From Candidatus Woesearchaeota archaeon (GTDB lineage Archaea > Nanobdellota > Nanobdellia > Pacearchaeales > GW2011-AR1): a stretch of DNA of 64,000 bases. The notes below the pieces were generated by a model. That model worked only from the letters and a program-made list of their open reading frames with translations, was not told the origin of the DNA and searched no databases. Of the stretch, positions 12,005-61,505 are shown piece after piece (position 1 is the stretch's first letter; each line of letters opens with the position of its first letter). The stretch is taken from NCBI GenBank assembly GCA_964493885.1, contig CAZBPV010000002.1, positions 15,614-79,613 of the forward strand, read 5' to 3'. A program made the position numbers and the translations under genes.

Positions 12005-12100
12005 CGCCCCGGACAGGATTTGAACCTGCGACCCTTAGCTTTCTTCTTTAGTTATCCATTTTAGAAGGCTAATGCTCTATCCAGGCTGAGCTACCAGGGC
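12005..12100 (-). tRNA. tRNA-Arg(UCU) with ~21-nt intron (about 12041-12061)
   Basis: Acceptor GCCCTGG/CCGGGGC, D arm GCTC-AGCCTGGATA-GAGC, anticodon stem TTAGC/GCTAA, loop CTTCTA, T arm GCAGG-TTCAAAT-CCTGT. The central 4-bp helix CTTC/GAAG is present; the outer helix is weak. Confidence 0.85.
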
Positions 12101-35808: not shown

Positions 35809-35903
35809 TGACTCTGGGGGGATTTTAACCCCCGACCTCCGCCTTGCTCAATATTTTTTGATATTCATGAGAGCGGCGCTGCTGAACACTGAGCTACAGA
35901 GTC
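35809..35903 (-). tRNA. tRNA with CAU anticodon (elongator Met, or Ile2) with 21-nt intron (35845-35865)
   Basis: Acceptor GACTCTG/CAGAGTC, anticodon stem CCGCT/GGCGG, loop CTCATG, canonical BHB (CTCA/TGAG plus ATAT/ATAT), T arm GGGGG-TTAAAAT-CCCCC. Confidence 0.8.
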
Positions 35904-37209: not shown

Positions 37210-37725
37210 TTATGGTTTCATCCACTTAACTTCATAATAAGTCACATCCCCTTCATCATCTATTACTGCAAGCAGAAGATGTTTCTTAGTTGAGTGAGCT
37301 ACTCTATTTTTAGCTGAAAACTCATGCCATGATATTCTTTTTGATTCATAGTCTATAAAAACCAACCATTTAGCATGTGCAATTCCTGGTTTAGTTCCTT
37401 TTTCATAAACTCTAAAATCTGCTCCAAATTTTAATGCTGTTTTTGGAATGTACCCCTTATTTCTTAAGTCCTTGAATACAATGTATTTTAATTCAATTCT
37501 TTTGTCAATCTTTTGAAGTTTTTTAAGAGCATTTTTTTTAGAAATTTCTTTATTATTTGAGAATAATCTTAATTTTTTTAAATTCATTAAATAAAGAGCT
37601 TCACTTAAAGAGTATTGAATTTTATCTTCTATTCTTTCTCCAAAATGGCTTTTTTCAAATAAAGAGTATGCTTCTTGGGAGTTGCTTGAGATTGTTCTTT
37701 TTGAAAGATTTGCCTGTATGCTCAT
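37210..37725 (-). CDS. endA: tRNA-splicing endonuclease
   Basis: 171 aa; LRNKGYIPKTALKFGADFRVYEKG...AHAKWLVFI catalytic-domain pattern. Consistent with the five intron-bearing tRNAs in this window. Confidence 0.85.
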   Translation of the reverse strand: MSIQANLSKRTISSNSQEAYSLFEKSHFGERIEDKIQYSLSEALYLMNLKKLRLFSNNKEISKKNALKKLQKIDKRIELKYIVFKDLRNKGYIPKTALKFGADFRVYEKGTKPGIAHAKWLVFIDYESKRISWHEFSAKNRVAHSTKKHLLLAVIDDEGDVTYYEVKWMKP

Positions 37726-51837: not shown

Positions 51838-51963
51838 GGGCTCATAGTTTAATGGATAGAATAGCTGGCTACGGCGATGATGTTTGCGAGGCTTTAAGCC
51901 TATTGATATGCGAGCAGGCATCGGAGAAACCGGCTGATGAAGGTTCGATTCCTTCTGGGCTCA
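51838..51963 (+). tRNA. tRNA-Arg with apparent ACG anticodon and 54-nt intron (51875-51928)
   Basis: Acceptor GGGCTCA/TGGGCTC, anticodon stem GCTGG/CCGGC, loop CTACGG, T arm GAAGG-TTCGATT-CCTTC. The BHB has outer helix GATG/CATC and central helix CTAC/GGAG with one A.G mismatch at position 34. Confidence 0.7.
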
Positions 51964-52106: not shown

Positions 52107-52856
52107 ATGATTCAATTAACTCCTGAACTGTCTGAAATTTGCGGTATCCATGCGGGCGATGGTTATATGAGGACAAGAGGAAGAAATAAGGGGGAGATAG
52201 ATATAAGTGGAAATCTTGAAGAACAGGAATATTATGATAAACATGTTATCCCTTTATTTAACAAAGTTTTTGATTTACATTTAAAAGGAAGAACTTTCTC
52301 TAGAGGTACTTATGGGTTTGTTTGCTATAAAAGAGAAGTAAGAGAATTGTTTTTTAGATTAGGTTTTCCTTTTGGGAGTAAATCTTTAACTGTAAAGGTT
52401 CCTAAACAAATATTGGATTCAGAGAACTCTGTTTTGTATTCAGGCTTCTTAAGAGGTCTTTTAGATACAGATGGACATATTGGATTTAAAAAAAGAACAT
52501 CTGGCAAGTATTGCAAATTTAAATTGAATAATCATTATTATCCTACTATTGTTTTGACTACAATCTCTAAAAAACTATCTGAAGAAATTAGTTTTATCTT
52601 GAATAAACTTGAGATAAAACATTTTGTGTATTCTTCTCAACCGAAAAATCTTAGGGATAATTATTATTTTAGGATAATTATTAATGGGGTTGATAGATTA
52701 GAGAGATGGATGAAATTAATTGGAAGCAAAAATCCGGTTAAATTTTCTAGATATTTGGTTTGGAAAAAATTTGGCTTTTGTCCAACACACACTACCTTAC
52801 AACAAAGGAAAGATATTTTAAGTGGAAAGTTAGATCTATTGAGTATAGGCTCATAG
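52107..52856 (+). CDS. LAGLIDADG homing endonuclease (double-motif, monomeric type)
   Basis: LSEICGIHAGDGYM and FLRGLLDTDGHIGF motifs about 100 aa apart. The last 10 nt overlap the 5' end of the next tRNA. Confidence 0.8.
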   Translation: MIQLTPELSEICGIHAGDGYMRTRGRNKGEIDISGNLEEQEYYDKHVIPLFNKVFDLHLKGRTFSRGTYGFVCYKREVRELFFRLGFPFGSKSLTVKVPKQILDSENSVLYSGFLRGLLDTDGHIGFKKRTSGKYCKFKLNNHYYPTIVLTTISKKLSEEISFILNKLEIKHFVYSSQPKNLRDNYYFRIIINGVDRLERWMKLIGSKNPVKFSRYLVWKKFGFCPTHTTLQQRKDILSGKLDLLSIGS

Positions 52857-52958
52857 TTTAATGGATAAAATTTCAGGTTTCGGAAATTTTGCTTATTTAA
52901 AAATTATAATCAATATTGGAAAACCCTGACGATGGGGGTTCGAATCCCTCTGGGCCTA
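52847..52958 (+). tRNA. tRNA-Arg(UCG) with 40-nt intron (52884-52923)
   Basis: Acceptor AGGCTCA/TGGGCCT, anticodon stem TCAGG/CCTGA, loop TTTCGG, BHB central helix TTTC/GGAA, T arm GGGGG-TTCGAAT-CCCTC. Confidence 0.8.
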
Positions 52959-52962
52959 TTTT

Positions 52963-54324
52963 TTATTTTAGTTTCTTCTCTAGAATCTGCTTTGCTGTCT
53001 TGAAATCTGCACGCTTGTCTGACAATCTCATTATTTGTCCAATAAGGAAGTTGAGGGCGTTTTTTTCTCCAGACTTAAAGTCTTGAACTGCCTTTGAATT
53101 ATCTTTTATTACTTTTTCAATAATCTTGTCAATTTCTCCTTTGTCTGAAATCTGGCTGAATTTTTCAGACTCTTTTTTAGGAGATGAGCTTCCTTTAATC
53201 CAGCTTCTTAAAATGTCTTTTGCTTTAAGATCTGTTATTTTCTTTTTTTCTATTAAATCAAGCAGTTCAATAAAGTGCAGAGGATTAATGTCAATTTCTT
53301 CAAGTTCTTTTTTATTATAATTTAATACAGAAAGAAGCTCCTCTGTTATCCATCTTACTGCTAGAGATGGATTAGTTTTCTCAATTATCTTTTCAAAGAA
53401 TTCAACTATCTCTAGTTTTTTTGTGAGTATTTCTGCAGATTCCTTGTTTATCTTGTATTTTTTTATTAATTTTTCAAGCTTTGCTCTTGGAGTTTCTGGC
53501 AAAGAAGCTTTTAATTTTTCTACTCTTTCTTTCTTGATTATTATTGCTGGCAAGTCTGGCTCTGAAATAAATCTGTAATCTTCTGCTTGCTCTTTTGTTC
53601 TCATTAATTTAGTTATATTTTTTTCAGAATCAAACATTCTTGTTTCTTGGATTTTTGGAATATCTTTAGTTTGTCTTTGAATTTCTGATTCAATTGCTTT
53701 TTTTATGTTGCTTAATGAATTTATGTTTTTCATTTCAATTCGTGCTCCCTTTAATTCTGGAAGAGAGATATTAACATCTGCTTTTATTCCAGCTGTTTTG
53801 TCAATTGCTTTTATGTAGCTAAGAGTTGCAAGCAATTGCTTGAGCCATTCCACAACTTGCTCTGAAGTTTTGAAATCTGGTTCTGTAACAATTTCAATTA
53901 GTGGTGAGCCACTTCTATTGTAATCTATTTCCCCTGTTTCAGGGTTCCATGCTGCAGGATCTTCTTCAAGATGACACTCTGTTATTCTTACCCCAAGAAA
54001 ATTCCCTTTTTCTGCATTTGGAGTTGAATGGGGGCCAGAAATTGTATTTTGGAATCCTTTTGGTAAGTCAGGCCAGGAATAATGCTTTCTTTGCCAGACA
54101 AGCTTTGGATTGATTTTGCAATTAAGAATAAGAGCTATTTGAATTGCCTTGCTTATTGCTTCTGAATTTGGAAGAAGAGGCTTGCTTCCTGGAGCACCGA
54201 CACATATTGGGCAGATATTTGTATTTGGCTTTGCATTTTTAGCTCCATGCTCTGCTTTGCAAGTGCAGAATAGTTTCTCTTTTGTATTAATATATCCATG
54301 AATTTCAAGTCCTATCTTTGGCAT
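52963..54324 (-). CDS. gatB: Asp/Glu-tRNA amidotransferase subunit B
   Basis: IGLEIHGYINTKEKLFCTC...PNTNICPICVGAPGSKPLLP...RKHYSWPDLPKGFQ, with a C-terminal YqeY-like tail. Confidence 0.9.
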   Translation of the reverse strand: MPKIGLEIHGYINTKEKLFCTCKAEHGAKNAKPNTNICPICVGAPGSKPLLPNSEAISKAIQIALILNCKINPKLVWQRKHYSWPDLPKGFQNTISGPHSTPNAEKGNFLGVRITECHLEEDPAAWNPETGEIDYNRSGSPLIEIVTEPDFKTSEQVVEWLKQLLATLSYIKAIDKTAGIKADVNISLPELKGARIEMKNINSLSNIKKAIESEIQRQTKDIPKIQETRMFDSEKNITKLMRTKEQAEDYRFISEPDLPAIIIKKERVEKLKASLPETPRAKLEKLIKKYKINKESAEILTKKLEIVEFFEKIIEKTNPSLAVRWITEELLSVLNYNKKELEEIDINPLHFIELLDLIEKKKITDLKAKDILRSWIKGSSSPKKESEKFSQISDKGEIDKIIEKVIKDNSKAVQDFKSGEKNALNFLIGQIMRLSDKRADFKTAKQILEKKLK

Positions 54325-54329
54325 TTTAA

Positions 54330-54752
54330 TTAAAGATTGTTTTCTTTTATCAATTTATCTATTTTAGATTTTATTTGTGAGTAGAATTCTTTTATATTTT
54401 TTGCATCTTCTGATGAGATAATTCTTCCATAATATTTGGAACCATTTCTCATGTATCTGAAATTATCCATTTTTTGAATTAATGCAATATCAAATCCCTT
54501 ATTCATGAGATAAACTATCGATGCTTCATGGGAATAAGACTTTAAGCCTTCAAGAGCGAGCAATGAATTGCAAAAGTCCTGAATAGAATCATACATGCTT
54601 TCAAAAATTGTTTTGGGCTTCTTTTTTTCGTCTTCGTTCCAGTTTTCACTTAGCCTTATTTTCATATCTTTTATAAGGGATTTGGCTAAAACTGGATTTT
54701 TAGAGCATTTCTTAACTTCATGATTGCTTAAAAAATATTCAAAAGGTTTCAT
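54330..54752 (-). CDS. HEPN-domain protein (toxin partner of the adjacent nucleotidyltransferase)
   Basis: 140 aa helical protein with NFRYMRNGSKYYG (an R-x4-type HEPN motif region); 4-nt overlap with the MNT gene. Confidence 0.6.
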   Translation of the reverse strand: MKPFEYFLSNHEVKKCSKNPVLAKSLIKDMKIRLSENWNEDEKKKPKTIFESMYDSIQDFCNSLLALEGLKSYSHEASIVYLMNKGFDIALIQKMDNFRYMRNGSKYYGRIISSEDAKNIKEFYSQIKSKIDKLIKENNL

Positions 54753-55279
54753 TTTTTATTAATGTATCCATAGAGGATTAGCCCATTTATTAAATTAGTA
54801 TAAAATTCATCAGACATTTTCTTATAATGAGTAATAATGAGGTGTATCTTTCTATTAATGGATTTTTCATACCTGCTTAAATCAGGATATTCTTCTTTAT
54901 CTGCTATAATTACTATGTCTATATCACTTTTCTCAATGTCTTCGCCTTTAGAATAGCTTCCTATAGCTGAGATTAATTCTGGATTAAGCTTACTTGTCAG
55001 ATGCTCAATCAATCCTGAGGAGTATAGTTGCTCAATATTTGACAGCCTTTTTCTTATAACTGCTTTTGGATTATCAAAATTAAAAGATATCTCTGTAATA
55101 TGTTTCTTTTTTTCCTGAATTAAAATATCCTCTTTGACAAGACTTTCTGTAATGTTTATTATTGTATTTGGGTTTAGGTTGGTAATTTTTGCAAGCTCTC
55201 TTATATGAAATTTGTAGGTTGGTTTTGAAAATATCTCTTTCAATATCCTGCTTTTATTATTGTTCATTTTATTATACAA
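54749..55279 (-). CDS. minimal nucleotidyltransferase (MNT) with an N-terminal wHTH
   Basis: AIGSYSKGEDIEKSDIDIVIIA (GS-x9-DxD), with the N-terminal stretch FHIRELAKITNLNPNTIINITESL. Confidence 0.75.
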   Translation of the reverse strand: MYNKMNNNKSRILKEIFSKPTYKFHIRELAKITNLNPNTIINITESLVKEDILIQEKKKHITEISFNFDNPKAVIRKRLSNIEQLYSSGLIEHLTSKLNPELISAIGSYSKGEDIEKSDIDIVIIADKEEYPDLSRYEKSINRKIHLIITHYKKMSDEFYTNLINGLILYGYINKK

Positions 55280-55403
55280 TTATCCTTTTAATTATACAAC
55301 TGTATAATATTTTATATATTTAAATGTTATGATGAGGGAGTATACCCCTTTTAAGTAAGAACATAAGGGAAAGATTTAAATAATCTATCTTTCTCCAAAA
55401 GTC

Positions 55404-56048
55404 ATGGCACCCATAATCAACGTTGCTGAAGAAGACTTTGAAAGAGCAAGTAAGCTTTTGGAACTTGCAAATGTAGATTATACTCTTCTAAATACTTCTA
55501 AATCTAATTCAACTGAATATTTTGAAGTTCCTAGTCTTAAGGGCATTAAAATTGCAAAGCAAAGAACACTATTAGGAAAGAGTTGGTATGAATCTCATGA
55601 AGCATTACAATCTCAAGGACAGAGAATGATTACTCTTCCTGAATTTGCTGAAGTTCTTAAATACACTCAAAAAGAGCTTCCAGAGGTTTACGAAGATATA
55701 ACTGCAGTAAGAAATCCTTGGAGAGTAGAATGGATTGATGCTTTCTTTGAAGAAAGAGAAGATGGAATGTATATTCTTACAGGAAATAAAACTAGAGCAG
55801 AAAAACTTAAGCCCTGTTTAATGGAAGACAGAACTCCTGGAATTTCATTAGATTCATGGATTGAAAATCCAACAAATCAAGGACTTCCTAAAAGAAATGC
55901 TAAAGAAGGAGATTTATACTTTTGGGCTCCAAAAAGTGGAGCAGTCGCGGGGTTCGTTGCCATCGGTGTTAGGGCTGACCTTGACTGCGTCGGGGATCCT
56001 ACTATCAGGAATTCCATTCTCGGGGTAAGAGCTGTTAAAACCGCTTGA
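55404..56048 (+). CDS. DGR variable (target) protein, 214 aa, with the C-terminal VR probably in a C-type-lectin/FGE-like fold
   Basis: The VR occupies codons 181-208 (AVAGFVAIGVRADLDCVGDPTIRNSILGV) just before the stop. The upstream stretch ...WRVEWIDAFF...GDLYFWAPKSG is consistent with a CLec-type scaffold (inference). Confidence 0.85.
   Translation: MAPIINVAEEDFERASKLLELANVDYTLLNTSKSNSTEYFEVPSLKGIKIAKQRTLLGKSWYESHEALQSQGQRMITLPEFAEVLKYTQKELPEVYEDITAVRNPWRVEWIDAFFEEREDGMYILTGNKTRAEKLKPCLMEDRTPGISLDSWIENPTNQGLPKRNAKEGDLYFWAPKSGAVAGFVAIGVRADLDCVGDPTIRNSILGVRAVKTA
55943..56027 (+). other. DGR variable region (VR)
   Basis: 85 nt aligned without gaps to 56300-56384: 69 identities and 16 mismatches, all opposite TR adenines. 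Confidence 0.9.
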
Positions 56049-56299
56049 TGTTTGGCTCGCTAACAGGAAACTTAAATTTTTAAATAATCTTTTACTTTGT
56101 TTATTGTCCTGAAACATTGTTTTTTGAGCCTTTTTCAGCATGAGCAATTGAAAAAGACTAGAGCAAGAAAAACAAAGGAGGACTACATGCCAGTTTATTA
56201 GCACATCATTTAGATTTATTTTAAGTCATAAAATTCAAAAGTTTCTTGTGAGGAACTTTGGTGGCAGGTTTACCTGATAATTGATAATCTGGCTACACT

Positions 56300-56384
56300 A
56301 GTCGCGAGGTTCAATGCCAACGATGATAGGGCTAACCTTAACTGCAACAGGAATCCTACTAACAGGAATTCCAATCTCGGAATA
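56300..56384 (+). other. DGR template region (TR)
   Basis: 29 adenines, 16 of which differ in the VR (10 read G, 6 read T). In the target frame it encodes VARFNANDDRANLNCNRNPTNRNSNLGI with nine AAY codons. It ends 24 nt before the RT start. Confidence 0.9.
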
Positions 56385-56408
56385 GTTCTCTTTCAGGATA
56401 TTTTACTT

Positions 56409-57413
56409 ATGAAAAATGAATCTCTTTATGATAAAATTATTTCTCTGAAAAACCTTACTCTGGCTTGGAAAAAAGCCAGAAAAGGCAAGACAAGGAAGGA
56501 CGATGTCATTGAATTTGAAGAGAATATTGTCTATAATCTGAAAGTTCTTCATGATGAATTAAAAAGGGGAAATTACCAACCTAAACCCCTAAAAACCTTT
56601 ATCCTTAGAGACCCTAAAACAAGAAAGATTTCAAAATCAGCATTTAGAGATAGAATAGTTCATCATGCTCTGGTTAGAATTATAGAGCCAATTTTTGATA
56701 AATCTTTTATTTATGATAACTGCGCCAATAGAAAAGGCAAGGGAACTTTGTTTGCTTTAAAGAGATTTGATAAATTCAAGAGAAAAGTTACTTCTAATCT
56801 TTCCAAGCAGGCATTTTGTCTTAAAGCAGACATAAAACATTATTTTCAAGAAGTGGATAGGGGAATATTATTAAAAATTATTCAAAGAAGAGTAGATTGC
56901 AGTGGAACTTGCAATTTAATTCAGATAATATTAAGTAACTTTGAGGGACATAAAGGTATGCCTTTGGGTAATTTAACCTCACAATTTTTTGCGAATGTTT
57001 ATCTGAATGAGTTAGATTGGTTTGTGAAGTATAAGTTAAGAGTTAGATATTACATCCGATATGTTGACGACTTTGTGATTTTGCATAAATTTGAATGGCA
57101 ACTTATAAACTGGAAAATAGAGATTAATCAGTTCTTAAGATTCAATTTAAAGATAGAACTTCATAAAGACAAGTCGAGCATAATTTTAATATCTAGAGGT
57201 GTGGATTTTGTGGGGTTTAGAAATTTTTATTATCACCGATTATTGAGGAAGAGAAATATTAGAAAGATGAAAGTAAAGATAGACTTATTTAATCACCCGG
57301 AGATGGAGCAAAATCAATTCATTGAAGTATTTTTAGGATGGACTGCCTATTCAAATTTGGCTAATAGTTATAGTTTAGTTAAAAGTTTAATAAAAATGAT
57401 AAATCTTAGATAG
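56409..57413 (+). CDS. DGR reverse transcriptase
   Basis: 334 aa; RDRIVHHAL, ADIKHYFQEVD, GMPLGNLTSQFFANVYLNELD (DGR-typical SQ motif), YIRYVDDFVIL (YxDD), VDFVGF. Confidence 0.9.
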   Translation: MKNESLYDKIISLKNLTLAWKKARKGKTRKDDVIEFEENIVYNLKVLHDELKRGNYQPKPLKTFILRDPKTRKISKSAFRDRIVHHALVRIIEPIFDKSFIYDNCANRKGKGTLFALKRFDKFKRKVTSNLSKQAFCLKADIKHYFQEVDRGILLKIIQRRVDCSGTCNLIQIILSNFEGHKGMPLGNLTSQFFANVYLNELDWFVKYKLRVRYYIRYVDDFVILHKFEWQLINWKIEINQFLRFNLKIELHKDKSSIILISRGVDFVGFRNFYYHRLLRKRNIRKMKVKIDLFNHPEMEQNQFIEVFLGWTAYSNLANSYSLVKSLIKMINLR

Positions 57414-57443: not shown

Positions 57444-58727
57444 ATGAATATCCAAGCTAAACCTGGAGATTATGTTGAGATACATTTAACTCGATTAATC
57501 TATGAAGGAATCCTTTTAGAAGCTCCTGAATCTGAGACAGGAGTTGTTTTGCTTAAGCTAGATTCTGGGTATAATATTGGATTTAAGAAAAAAGACATAC
57601 TTGAGATAAAAAAGTTAAAAGAAGCAGATAAAAAAATAGAGAAAGTTGAAGTTGAACAAAAGCAAGGAAAACCAAACATTGCTATGATTATTACAGGAGG
57701 AACAATAGCTTCAAGATATGATTCTAAAACTGGAGGAGTTTCGTGGCTTGATTCCCCTGAGAATTTATTTAAATTTTATCCTAAACTTTTTGATAGAGTT
57801 AATGTGATTAAGGTAGAGGTTCCATTTATGAAAGGAAGTGAGAATATGAATCCTGGTGATTGGAAGAAGATTGCAAGAATTGCTGAGAAATTATTAAATG
57901 ATTCAAATATCAGGGGAGTAATTATAACTCACGGAACAGATACTTTGCATTATACTGCTGCTGCACTGAGTTTCTTCTTAAGAAATTTAAATAAACCTGT
58001 TGCTTTAACTTATTCACAGAGAAGTATTGATAGAGCTTCGAGTGATGCTGATTTAAATCTGCAGTGTTCAGCTCTTGCTGCAATTTCAGATATAGCTGAA
58101 GTAATTCTTATAGGGCATGCTTCAACAAATGATGATTTTTGCTATGCACTGCCTGGAACAAAAGTAAGAAAAATGCATAGTTCAAGAAGAGATGCATTTA
58201 GGGTTGTAAACTCCAAGGCATTTGCAGAAGTTTATCCAGATAAATTTGTAAAATTATCTGATTATAATCTAAGGCATACTGGAAAGTGCAAGGCAGATGC
58301 CAAGTTTGAAGATAAAGTTGCATTAGTTAAATTTTATCCTGGACAGACTCCAGATATACTTGATTTTTATATTAAGAATAAGTACAAGGGAATAGTTATT
58401 GAGATGCTTGGATTAGGGCAGATTGCCACAAATACTGAATCTAAGATTGGCTGGACAAAAAAAATCAAAGAGATTATTGATAAAGGAATTATTGTTTGTG
58501 CTACTGCTCAGACAATTTATGGAAGGCTTGATCCTTTAGTTTATTCAACTGGGAGAGAACTTATGGACACTGGAGTTATTTATTTGGAAGACATGCTTTC
58601 TGAAACTGCATATGTTAAACTTGGATGGGTTTTAGGGCATGAGGAATGGGCAAAAAATAAGGAATTGGTTAAGGAGAAAATGCTTGAAAATTTTTCTCAC
58701 GAACTAAATAATAGGCTGGAAAAATAA
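57444..58727 (+). CDS. gatD: Glu-tRNA(Gln) amidotransferase subunit D
   Basis: Asparaginase-like IAMIITGGTIASRYD...ITHGTDTLHYTAAALSF, with an N-terminal GatD-specific domain. Confidence 0.9.
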   Translation: MNIQAKPGDYVEIHLTRLIYEGILLEAPESETGVVLLKLDSGYNIGFKKKDILEIKKLKEADKKIEKVEVEQKQGKPNIAMIITGGTIASRYDSKTGGVSWLDSPENLFKFYPKLFDRVNVIKVEVPFMKGSENMNPGDWKKIARIAEKLLNDSNIRGVIITHGTDTLHYTAAALSFFLRNLNKPVALTYSQRSIDRASSDADLNLQCSALAAISDIAEVILIGHASTNDDFCYALPGTKVRKMHSSRRDAFRVVNSKAFAEVYPDKFVKLSDYNLRHTGKCKADAKFEDKVALVKFYPGQTPDILDFYIKNKYKGIVIEMLGLGQIATNTESKIGWTKKIKEIIDKGIIVCATAQTIYGRLDPLVYSTGRELMDTGVIYLEDMLSETAYVKLGWVLGHEEWAKNKELVKEKMLENFSHELNNRLEK

Positions 58728-60059: not shown

Positions 60060-61505
60060 ATGAGTGATTTGGATTATGCAAAATTAGGTATGAAATCTGG
60101 ATTAGAGATTCATCAGCAATTAGATACTCATAAATTATTCTGCAGCTGCCCTTCTGTTTTAAGGCAGGATGAGCCAGAGTATGTTATTAAAAGAAAGCTT
60201 CATGCTGTAGCAGGAGAAAAAGGAGCTGTTGATGTTGCTGCAGAGTACCAGGCATCTTTAGACAAGGAATTTATTTATCAAGCATATGATACTACTTGTT
60301 TAGTTGAATTAGATGAAGAACCTCCCCATCAAATAAATCAAGAGGCACTGAAAATTGCAGTGCAGATTGCTGTTTTGTTAAATGCCAAGATTTTTCCTAT
60401 TACACAGATAATGAGAAAGACTGTTATTGATGGAAGTAATACAAGTGGATTTCAGAGAACTATTTTAATTGCGCGAGATGGTTATCTTGAAACTTCTAAT
60501 GGAAGAGTTGGAATCGATAGTATTTGTTTAGAAGAAGATGCTGCGAGAATTGTTTCTAAAGATGAAAATTCAGCAATATATAGATTAGATAGATTAGGAA
60601 TTCCTTTGATTGAGATTGCAACTGCTCCTGATATGAAAACTCCTGAGCAAGTTAAGGAAGTTGCATTGCAAATCGGAAATATATTAAGAAGCTTAAAAGT
60701 TAAAAGAGGACTTGGAACTATTAGACAAGACTTGAATGTTTCTATTAAAGGAGGAGCAAGAACTGAAATAAAAGGGTTTCAGGATCCTTCAATGATGATT
60801 AAAACAATTGAAAATGAACTTAAAAGACAACAGGAAATTATTTCAAAAGGAGAGAGAGTTGTTGAAGGTGTAAGAAATGCATTGAAAGATGGAAGCACAG
60901 AATTCTTAAGGCCAATGCCTGGAGCTGAGAGGATGTATCCTGAAACAGATTTGCCTTTGTTAAAAATACCTTTAGATTTAATTAATGAAGCAAAGAAAAC
61001 ACTTCCTAAATTAAGAAGTGAAGAAGAAAAAGAATTAGTCAAAAAAGGATTAAATAAAGATATGATTACTTTATTGTTCAAGCAAAACAAGCTTGCAGAA
61101 TTCAAGGAGTTGTTAAAAGAGTTTGATAATCCTTCTTTGGTTGCCAAGATATTGCTGATGTATCCTAAGGAAATTGCATCAAGAGAAAATGTTTCATTAG
61201 AAAGAGCAGAGGAATTATTGTCTAGGGAAGTACTAGCATTTATTCTTGAATCAGTTAAAAAGAAAAAAATCTTAGAGAATGATATTAAATTAGTGCTAGA
61301 GAAAGTTGTTAGAGGAGAAGATGTCAAGGAAGCAATTGAAATTGAAAAAGCAGATGTTACTGAAATTGAAGACGAAATTAGGAAGCTTATAGGTAATAAA
61401 CCAGGATTATCTCCTAATGCCTATATGGGATTAGTTATGAAAGAATTTAAGGGAAGAGTTGATGGAAAAACAGCAATAGAAATTATTAAAAGATATGTCA
61501 AATGA
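60060..61505 (+). CDS. gatE: Glu-tRNA(Gln) amidotransferase subunit E, short form (481 aa)
   Basis: GLEIHQQLDTHKLFCSCPS...TCLVELDEEPPH...FLRPMPGAERMYPETDLP. The segment between ELKRQQ and FLRPMPG is only about 30 aa. Confidence 0.85.
   Translation: MSDLDYAKLGMKSGLEIHQQLDTHKLFCSCPSVLRQDEPEYVIKRKLHAVAGEKGAVDVAAEYQASLDKEFIYQAYDTTCLVELDEEPPHQINQEALKIAVQIAVLLNAKIFPITQIMRKTVIDGSNTSGFQRTILIARDGYLETSNGRVGIDSICLEEDAARIVSKDENSAIYRLDRLGIPLIEIATAPDMKTPEQVKEVALQIGNILRSLKVKRGLGTIRQDLNVSIKGGARTEIKGFQDPSMMIKTIENELKRQQEIISKGERVVEGVRNALKDGSTEFLRPMPGAERMYPETDLPLLKIPLDLINEAKKTLPKLRSEEEKELVKKGLNKDMITLLFKQNKLAEFKELLKEFDNPSLVAKILLMYPKEIASRENVSLERAEELLSREVLAFILESVKKKKILENDIKLVLEKVVRGEDVKEAIEIEKADVTEIEDEIRKLIGNKPGLSPNAYMGLVMKEFKGRVDGKTAIEIIKRYVK

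Follow-up and report, generated by a model that had tools for sequence, protein, structure and literature searches.

Within the 64,000-nucleotide stretch analysed here (hereafter the window; contig CAZBPV010000002.1 of the Candidatus Woesearchaeota archaeon assembly GCA_964493885.1), the locus at positions 55404-57413 is very probably a diversity-generating retroelement (DGR) of a DPANN archaeon that does without the accessory protein Avd. It comprises a target gene with a variable repeat (VR), a template repeat (TR) as well as a gene for a reverse transcriptase (RT), together with a structured RNA of the Rfam family RT-16 in the spacer between the two repeats and an RNA helix predicted to bracket the template. 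This reading is carried by the anatomy of the repeat pair, the class of the RT, the fold predicted for the target, the association of the RNA with the cassette, the covariation of the helix and the pattern of TR and VR differences across lineages. The host is represented by a Candidatus Nanoarchaeia metagenome-assembled genome (MAG), which fits the remark of the original prediction, made from the sequence alone, that DGRs are known from DPANN-lineage metagenomes. The same prediction called the element complete; target, VR, TR and RT are indeed all present, but no Avd was found, the layout being an accessory-free target-TR-RT arrangement, and the structured RT-16 RNA of the spacer had been overlooked. 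The kind of element is already known, namely a DPANN DGR of accessory-free architecture, and this member of it had previously gone unannotated.

Computational realignment of the VR with the TR (offset 357, gap-free, 85 columns) yields 69 identities and 16 mismatches, the counts first obtained by hand, and all 16 mismatches fall on TR adenines (10 A>G and 6 A>T). The non-A columns are identical throughout (56/56), and 13 of the 29 TR adenines are kept in the VR. The hypergeometric probability that 16 out of 16 mismatches would be confined to the 29 adenines is 8.6e-10, or 7.6e-9 with the 14 mismatches that remain informative after removal of two sites at the repeat 3' ends, discussed below. The template and gene translations given in the original prediction match exactly, its nine AAY codons included, and its statement that the substitutions lie mostly at the first two codon positions is borne out by 15 of the 16. 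Read in the frame of the gene, the TR presents nine AAY codons and 16 adenine-containing codons outside its 3' end; no stop codon can be reached by any adenine substitution, and about 2e14 protein variants are reachable. The pair was also the top direct repeat in an independent repeat search of the window. The A-masked TR pattern occurs twice in the 64-kb window against 0 occurrences expected, so that the window holds one VR, and the scan for this pattern detected no additional VRs there. Both repeats are G+C-rich islands relative to the genome (56.5% for the VR and 44.7% for the TR versus 31.5%), and the VR exceeds the TR in G+C because most of the fixed changes are from A to G.

The two 3'-most mismatches, at 56024-56025 (GGGGTA in the VR, GGAATA in the TR), are of a different nature. 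Among 24 VRs from 22 related loci, 22 contain GGGGTA, and the VR keeps GGGG even where the TR has GAAA. As the first of these sites is a synonymous third base of a Gly codon, random mutagenesis would be expected to leave a mixture there, and the fixation of GGGGTA argues against such an origin. The comparison therefore indicates that the two positions are a fixed directional marker, the initiation of mutagenic homing (IMH) element of the VR and its counterpart IMH* in the TR, rather than a product of recent mutagenesis. Asymmetry of this kind at the repeat 3' ends is characteristic of DGRs, and the pair TGGGGT (IMH) and TGGAAT (IMH*) has been reported for Nanoarchaeota DGRs (Paul et al. 2015, PMC4372165). 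With these two sites fixed, 14 observed changes are left in the mutable tract (~55943-56018), which contains 25 TR-adenine sites. The earlier claim that the mismatches record mutagenic retrohoming is thus upheld for the 14 informative sites at TR adenines, but not for 56024-56025.

The open reading frame (ORF) that starts 24 nt after the 3' edge of the TR encodes, as the original prediction had it, a 334-aa RT with DGR-typical motifs. It is full length and its catalytic motifs are intact. Pfam recognises it only as a generic RVT_1 domain (1e-16). Its best PDB match is 8ub7_A together with eight sister entries (E 2.3e-49, residues 3-323), compared to 1e-15 at best for group II intron RTs and 5e-15 for chains named 'retron-type RT'. 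The entry 8ub7_A is a 328-aa chain titled 'Reverse transcriptase', and we take the 8ub7 series to be cryo-EM structures of the Bordetella phage DGR RT (bRT), because the residue numbers match those of the bRT residues in the cryo-EM preprint by Handa et al. The catalytic motif YVDD aligns with YMDD of 8ub7_A, and L-G-N-L-T-S-Q aligns with the DGR-typical I-G-S-L-T-S-Q. Furthermore, R72, L186 and Q192 stand here at the positions of the bRT residues R74, I181 and Q187, which contact the template and the incoming nucleotide and are linked to adenine mutagenesis (Handa et al. cryo-EM preprint). More than 7,600 homologues were found, the nearest of them at 60-70% identity and for the most part in MAGs of Nanoarchaeota, Pacearchaeota and Woesearchaeota; the public annotation of the protein itself is just 'reverse transcriptase domain-containing'. 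By its PDB match and its motifs, we assign the enzyme to the DGR clade, with a catalytic core that appears intact.

It could be argued that the enzyme is instead a retron-like or defence RT, or a group II remnant, and that the VR and TR are an ordinary partial gene duplication. Such a reading would draw on the retron-like layout, in which the structured RNA precedes the copied segment on its 5' side and inverted repeats on the flanks close it, on the label 'retron-type reverse transcriptase' that some homologues carry in databases, and on weak sub-threshold NCBIfam matches to group II, Drt3a, AbiA and retron RTs. However, all of these NCBIfam matches are far under their cut-offs (124.8 bits versus 300 for the group II model TIGR04416, 36.6 bits versus 235 for the retron St85 RT model), and in the PDB search the DGR RT is matched better than retron-type or group II RTs by 34 orders of magnitude. 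The Rfam scan returned no group II intron or retron RNA, so that neither a retron-clade RT with an msr/msd RNA nor group II RNA domains on either side of the RT were found. A plain duplication would also not place 16 of 16 differences on adenines, nor would it repeat this in 23 other loci: in a simple scan, adenine-only VR/TR pairs were present in 23 of 67 loci encoding target homologues, several of them with 2-3 VRs per TR. We consider this explanation exceedingly improbable.

The target gene encodes a protein of 214 aa with a pI of 5.2, in which the VR covers residues 181-208 and lies within the last 105 nt of the coding sequence (CDS). The CDS (55404-56048) is as originally predicted, as is the absence of a signal peptide: no hydrophobic segment, signal peptide or transmembrane segment was detected in the protein (Kyte-Doolittle maximum 1.29), and neither Pfam nor NCBIfam gave a match. 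The identical protein in public records is a 'hypothetical protein' of a Candidatus Nanoarchaeia MAG. Homologues number 89 in DPANN archaea, with lengths of ~205-240 aa; their body is conserved and their last 30 residues are hypervariable, the hypervariable end being framed by an invariant V-A-x-F...L-G-V-R-A. A conserved motif, MAPII, is present at the N-terminus of the target. An AlphaFold2 model computed with the homologue alignment as input reached a predicted local distance difference test (pLDDT) score of 90.7, and all top Foldseek matches in the PDB were C-type lectin domains with a Foldseek probability of ~0.99, at modest E-values near 3e-3 and target-normalised template modelling (TM) scores of ~0.6. 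Against a viral library, the best matches were phage 'tail collar fiber' proteins (1e-4), and viral C-type lectins were also found. We therefore confidently predict that the target adopts a C-type-lectin fold and carries the VR at its C-terminal end, in keeping with the lectin-like fold that the original prediction had raised; the model thereby places the VR in the 3' part of an ORF with a variation-tolerant fold, as is usual for DGR targets. The search of the target sequence profile against PDB sequences, which include AvpA, Mtd and TvpA, returned nothing at E-values up to 10, and homology in sequence to any of these three proteins was accordingly rejected. Because the profile finds no PDB relative, AvpA included, the comparison places the target in a lectin-fold family separate from the AvpA family. 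At the level of sequence, this family would comprise lectin-fold proteins of ~215 aa that look cytoplasmic.

A further comparison is with the relative L068, a metagenome contig found by the A-masked TR scan that is ~85% identical to the window overall. Identity between the two is 75% in the target body, 85% in the spacer between VR and RNA and 81.5% at the RT 5' end, rising to 92.4% in the RT-16 RNA, 95.8% in the post-TR segment and 98.8% (84/85) in the TR, while the VRs are 83.5% identical. All 14 differences between the two VRs lie at TR-adenine positions, and the VR of L068 differs from its own TR at 16 adenines only. The VRs of the two lineages thus appear to have been rewritten independently. 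A non-coding template conserved beyond every other segment of the locus, next to VRs whose differences are confined to A sites, fits a working DGR and not a plain duplication.

These data also bear on whether the cassette is a fossil that once diversified its target and is now dead, its VR/TR differences being frozen relics. Such decay is seen in one related locus, L069, which holds the closest target homologue (79% identity). Only the 5' half of RT-16 is left there, and a gene for a MazE-like antitoxin, followed by another small ORF (L069:1060-1664), occupies the place where TR and RT would be; a toxin-antitoxin insertion seems to have disrupted the DGR cassette, and the broken cassette made L069 unusable as a VR comparison. 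A fossil would further account for the identical VR in three assemblies of the same organism and for the lack of both Avd and a target-side hairpin. On the other hand, the RT ORF of the window is full length with all catalytic motifs present, the VRs of the two lineages differ, and do so only at A sites, and the non-coding TR (98.8%) and RT-16 (92.4%) are conserved above the coding flanks (75-85%), which argues for continuing purifying selection on the machinery. We regard a dead cassette as improbable; on this reading the element would be active at present.

The points that weigh against a working Avd-less DGR deserve to be set out together. Firstly, neither the genes next to the cassette nor the small ORFs tested from the 64-kb window gave an Avd-like Pfam match, with ten further small ORFs in the window equally negative, and no Avd gene was found in either the cassette or the 64-kb window. 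An accessory protein, Avd or else HRDC, MSL or CH1, belongs to most DGRs but not to all of them. An all-against-all ORF comparison of 24 cassettes revealed no conserved gene besides target and RT. Two candidates for Avd were rejected individually: the 140-aa ORF at 54330-54752, which has no Pfam, NCBIfam or PDB match and adjoins an MntA-like nucleotidyltransferase, and the minus-strand ORF at 55914-56204, which overlaps with the VR and shows no conservation as a gene. Avd is required by the only biochemically studied DGR, according to passages of the survey by Wu et al. (2018, PMC5758913); those passages also assign 29% of catalogued DGRs to the accessory-free 'Architecture A1', for which an unknown Avd-independent mechanism was inferred. 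Because some 29% of catalogued DGRs have no accessory genes, the absence of Avd leaves membership in the class standing. Secondly, no hairpin or cruciform was found 3' of the VR: the DNA fold of 56015-56110 has -3.5 kcal/mol (z = +1.1 versus shuffles), the repeat search reported no inverted repeat just 3' of the VR, and a hairpin of the type known from phage BPP-1 was rejected on these grounds. In the Bordetella phage, this hairpin raises homing efficiency (PMC4372165 among the sources), so we treat it as enhancing rather than defining for DGRs. Thirdly, one and the same VR recurs in three assemblies of this population.

The spacer between VR and TR contains a match to RT-16 (RF03019; E 7.5e-8 for the whole window). 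The stem of its core domain, seen both in the Rfam consensus structure and in RNAalifold compensatory changes, ends 6 nt 5' of the TR. RT-16 is a conserved structured RNA that strictly co-occurs with TR and RT. It is present in 28 of 28 cassettes, i.e., the window and 27 related ones (20/20 in a first set and 7 more in a second), and 3 of the 7 later loci were chosen via RT homologues and not via the target. In every related cassette it lies directly 5' of the TR, its end being 0-8 nt from the TR start, and it was found in 0 of 6 target-homologue loci without TR or RT. The Rfam model of hairpin P1 fits the window poorly, as the 5' strand of P1 is located further upstream (56104-56113): the motif UUGUCCUGAA occurs ~52-57 nt 5' of a conserved CAYG in most loci, compared to 86 nt in the window. 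Published work has presented RT-1 to RT-19 just as motifs near RT genes; in passages of Weinberg et al. (2017, PMC5737381), RT-10 alone is tied to the Bordetella phage spacer, with the speculation that others of the RT motifs might be parts of DGRs. A link between RT-16 (RF03019) and DGRs was not found in the literature searched, where RT-16 appears only in database and 3D-motif papers.

The region upstream of the RT-16 core is predicted to pair with the far side of the template. RNAalifold, applied to 17 RNAs reaching from RT-16 into the RT ORF, pairs a consensus GGACUA 5' of the core with UAGUYY 3' of the TR. In the window, the two strands (a and a') form a helix of 11 bp (56174-56185 : 56383-56393) that is contained in both the minimum-free-energy and the centroid structure of the single sequence. 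Covariation was assessed for the 8-bp core of the helix (56178-56185 : 56383-56390) in 29 sequences. There, 93.5% of cells are paired, a share that falls to 32-46% on sliding the partner by 1-3 columns, and compensatory changes occur at 7 of the 8 pairs (U-A to C-G, A-U to G-C and U-A to A-U among them). Changes on both sides were counted in 34 cells versus 9.2 ± 2.7 in shuffles, with 0 of 500 shuffles reaching the observed value, and a 12-bp version of the helix behaved similarly. Invariant positions cluster at its end, comprising the terminal A-U pair, the C-A immediately after this pair on the 5' strand, and the AA before a' on the template strand; in the C-A-Y-G after the a strand, C, A and G are invariant and Y is C or U. 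Bounded by the core stem on its 5' side and by the helix on its 3' side, the ~85-nt TR would therefore form a loop, and the predicted pairing of 56178-56185 with 56383-56390 would correspond to the 'cPRT Stop'-like duplex across the TR that is expected of a DGR.

Two considerations count against this helix. The sequences used for covariation are related and the helix was derived from the same sequences, so that the shuffle control overstates its significance, a weakness that the slide control does not share. In addition, GGAC of the a strand can also pair with the conserved P1 outer stem (UUGUCC), a second partner which likewise shows compensatory changes and covaries with the a strand in L073 and L065. 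Since P1 and a:a' use the same GGAC and are mutually exclusive, the long-range helix cannot be the only conformation, and either the two pairings alternate as a switch or one of them is incidental. It is therefore conceivable that the locus is a DGR in which a pairs only with UUGUCC of P1 and the a:a' helix has no function, the likeness of a' to UUGUCC having another cause such as translation control of the RT. The position of a' just 5' of a Shine-Dalgarno-like AGGA would suit this view, as would the fact that the Rfam curators modelled P1 and not a:a'; the Rfam motif, however, was built from the spacer only and could not see a partner beyond the TR. Moreover, a:a' is the longer pairing (6-12 bp versus 4-5 bp for the P1 outer stem), contains invariant UA:UA pairs of which P1 has none, is the predicted structure of the window RNA, and shows its compensatory changes also in the subgroup L033/L036/L064/L043/L075, where a:a' is kept and no P1 partner was found. 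On this balance, a helix devoid of function seems unlikely to us.

A local hairpin after the TR (AGUyC...GGAC) was considered as a fold-back primer and rejected; it is good in ~15 loci and lost in variants, namely L065, L033, L036, L064 and L075, where the upstream a strand covaries with a' instead. The conserved AGGA 3' of a' is better read as the Shine-Dalgarno sequence or ribosome-binding site of the RT, and CAGGAC or CAGGGC is kept 8-15 nt 5' of the RT ATG in related loci. Coordinates of all elements of the cassette are compiled in Table 1. The TATA-like motifs upstream of the target gene (55373-55385) and of the RNA (56077-56089) are a 17-nt near-repeat of each other.

Table 1 Elements of the DGR cassette and their positions in the window
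Feature	Positions	Strand	Description
TATA/B recognition element (BRE)-like motif GATTTAAATAATC	55373-55385	+	~20 nt 5' of the target start codon; putative archaeal promoter
Target gene	55404-56048	+	214-aa variable protein, predicted C-type-lectin fold; from ORF, homologues, AlphaFold2 and Foldseek
VR	55943-56027	+	mutable tract ~55943-56018; IMH-like fixed 3' end CTCGGGGTA at 56019-56027
TATA-like motif TTTTTAAATAATC	56077-56089	+	~20 nt 5' of the first conserved element of the RNA; putative promoter of the RT-16-TR-RT transcript
P1 outer stem, 5' strand UUGUCCUGAA	56104-56113	+	RT-16 hairpin P1; alternative partner for GGAC of the a strand
RT-16 RNA (RF03019)	56129-56301	+	65.5 bits versus gathering score 50; ends at the first TR base
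a strand AAAGGAGGACUA	56174-56185	+	5' strand of the long-range helix; followed by conserved C-A-Y-G (56186-56189)
RT-16 core domain	56189-56293	+	closing stem GCCAGUUUAU (56189-56198) / AUAAUCUGGC (56284-56293)
TR	56300-56384	+	29 adenines, 9 AAY codons; 3' end CTCGGAATA (56376-56384) is IMH*
a' strand UAGUUCUCUUU	56383-56393	+	3' strand of the long-range helix; begins with the last two TR bases
CAGGAU	56394-56399	+	putative Shine-Dalgarno-like sequence; ends 9 nt 5' of the RT start codon
DGR RT gene	56409-57413	+	334 aa, pI 10

In order to rationalise these observations on the molecular level, we propose the following course of events. A single transcript would most likely run from near 56104 through RT-16, the TR and the RT ORF, a start that would fit the TATA-like box at 56077-56089 preceding it, which resembles that of the target gene. 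The RT would bind RT-16, and the a:a' helix would present the 3' end of the TR for priming. The RT would then copy the TR into complementary DNA (cDNA), misincorporating opposite template adenines, and synthesis would stop at the RT-16 core stem. The cDNA would replace the VR in the 3'-terminal part of the target gene, from 55943 to ~56018 and as far as the GGGGT marker, with the direction of transfer set by the fixed VR end CTCGGGGTA as opposed to the TR end CTCGGAATA. As a result, 16 codons on the putative ligand-binding face of the lectin-fold target would be recoded, giving access to ~2e14 proteins and never to a stop codon.

In the Bordetella phage, a duplex between upstream and downstream RNA across the TR is essential and marks the stop of cDNA synthesis, whereas the primer is the 2'-OH of an adenosine in the duplex adjoining the TR 3' end. 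Duplexes flanking the TR have been surveyed only among 278 Avd-encoding DGRs, with putative ones in 207. As a tentative extension, which we rate as possible but rather less probable than its converse, the a:a' helix may be the template:primer duplex itself, the primer strand in this Avd-less archaeal lineage coming from upstream of the TR. In that case, cDNA synthesis would be primed on the adjoining GGAA of the TR by the 2'-OH of the invariant A56185, whose pairing partner is U56383, or of the invariant C-A after it. The stop at the TR 5' end would be the RT-16 core stem, and an off/on switch would arise from the P1 outer stem (56104-56113) and a' exchanging with each other for GGAC. Retron-like 2'-OH priming at A56185 or C-A, with these residues in the place of the branching G of retrons, is consistent with the geometry.

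The comparison with the DGR of phage BPP-1 (mtd-avd-TR-brt) shows how far the parallels extend. Common to both are the adenine-specific TR-to-VR transfer into a C-terminal region of (here predicted) C-type-lectin fold, a full-length homologous RT (E 2e-49), an AAY-rich TR, the IMH/IMH*-type 3' asymmetry and an upstream:downstream duplex across the TR (the avd:Sp 'cPRT Stop' of the phage). Unlike the phage element, the archaeal one has no Avd and no GC-rich hairpin was found after its VR; its large RNA (RT-16) lies 5' of the TR and not 3' as does the ~140-nt spacer RNA (Sp, Rfam RT-10), and just 24 nt separate the TR from the RT start. As a' begins at the last two TR bases, there is no room for a downstream primer strand like Sp47-56.

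A closer relative in terms of host is the group of Nanoarchaeota DUSEL4 DGRs with the target AvpA (PMC4372165; Handa et al. 2016, PMC5006420). These also reside in DPANN archaea, have a small (~210-260 aa) single-domain C-type-lectin target without a recognisable sequence family, and share the IMH TGGGGT / IMH* TGGAAT pair and a VR of ~27 residues rich in AAY. They differ in that AvpA has 46 residues after the VR whereas the VR here is at the extreme C-terminus, in that the profile search detects no similarity of the present target family to any PDB chain, AvpA included, and in that there is here no GRA-loop hairpin in the target gene and no Avd-like small basic ORF between target and RT. 'Architecture A1' DGRs (PMC5758913) share the target-TR-RT layout without an accessory gene, but the survey passages on them describe no RNA element, in contrast to the RT-16 RNA and TR-bracketing helix found here. 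With respect to the Rfam RT-16 model, the spacer at 56129-56301 scores above the gathering threshold, yet the model contains neither the link to the TR start nor the Avd-less DGR context nor the pairing partner beyond the TR. Retrons resemble the locus in layout only, having a structured RNA 5' of the copied segment and inverted repeats that join the 5' flank to the 3' edge of the template, and they differ in that the RT here is assigned to the DGR clade and what is copied is a gene fragment paired with a cognate VR. In retrons the branching G sits at the end of the inverted-repeat helix, and it is at this place that the invariant nucleotides are found in the present locus.

Further observations concern related loci and the surroundings of the cassette. 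At L019:67-3935, and also in L009, L024, L028, L033, L035 and L072, a MoxR-like AAA_5 ATPase (~410 aa) is encoded beside target genes, and the same 6-7 loci encode a 590-aa protein without a Pfam family, often between two VR-bearing targets; both may be functional partners of the variable proteins, and both are absent from the window. An apparent relative from the candidate phyla radiation (CPR) of bacteria, P0197 ('Candidatus Paceibacterota bacterium'), was discarded, as its contig L072 (JGI Ga0209202_1000025) carries archaeal genes with markers such as a ribosomal L10/P0 insert domain and an aIF5A-like protein. An error in binning or annotation is the likely source of the bacterial label, which gives no evidence of a bacterial copy.

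In the window, the minus strand at 54330-55279 encodes a nucleotidyltransferase (Polbeta/NTP_transf_2, weak MntA match) overlapping the 140-aa basic ORF, and the two are probably an MNT-HEPN-type toxin-antitoxin pair situated between gatB and the DGR. The DGR and this toxin-antitoxin-like pair are inserted between gatB-like and gatD/gatE genes (52963-54324, 57444-58727 and 60060-61505), with GatD, DUF1003 and GatE on the far side of the DGR; GatD homologues are likewise found beside the cassettes of L022 and L028. An inverted repeat of 19 nt without mismatches (55170-55188 / 56570-56588; GGGTTTAGGTTGGTAATTT / AAATTACCAACCTAAACCC) has its arms in the nucleotidyltransferase gene and the RT gene, in different frames, and flanks the target, RT-16, the TR and the RT 5' end. 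We estimate that fewer than 1e-3 such repeats would be expected by chance in 5 kb, and among the compared loci it is confined to this MAG. Upstream, two long tRNA-model matches at 51838-51963 (126 nt) and 52847-52958 (112 nt) flank a LAGLIDADG endonuclease ORF (52107-52856) and are probably intron-containing tRNAs missed by ARAGORN. ARAGORN also missed the Rfam tRNA matches at 1543-1657, 12005-12100 and 35809-35903 (95-115 nt), and a tRNA-intron endonuclease gene is located at 37210-37725.

To our knowledge, no natural system of targeted protein hypermutation other than DGRs is known outside adaptive immunity. DGRs are unusually frequent among host-dependent DPANN and CPR organisms. All mechanistic knowledge of them that we are aware of derives from a single phage element, which requires Avd and a spacer RNA on the downstream side. 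How priming and stop are achieved in the ~30% of DGRs that are accessory-free is named as an open question in passages of the existing survey (PMC5758913). What is added here is the assignment of RT-16 to Avd-less DGRs, together with a structural model for Avd-independent reverse transcription that can be probed by mutation. The orphan Rfam family RT-16 thereby gains a biological context, in the form of Avd-less DGRs, a position at the TR start and a putative partner beyond the TR. The locus and its 27 relatives offer a compact candidate system, consisting of a ~300-nt RNA (RT-16, TR and an 11-nt closing strand) and a 334-aa RT, in which the base pairs of the helix and the invariant nucleotides provide specific sites for mutation. 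If the proposed priming scheme is true, RT-16 would replace both Avd and the Sp RNA of the phage, and DGRs and retrons would share a priming architecture.

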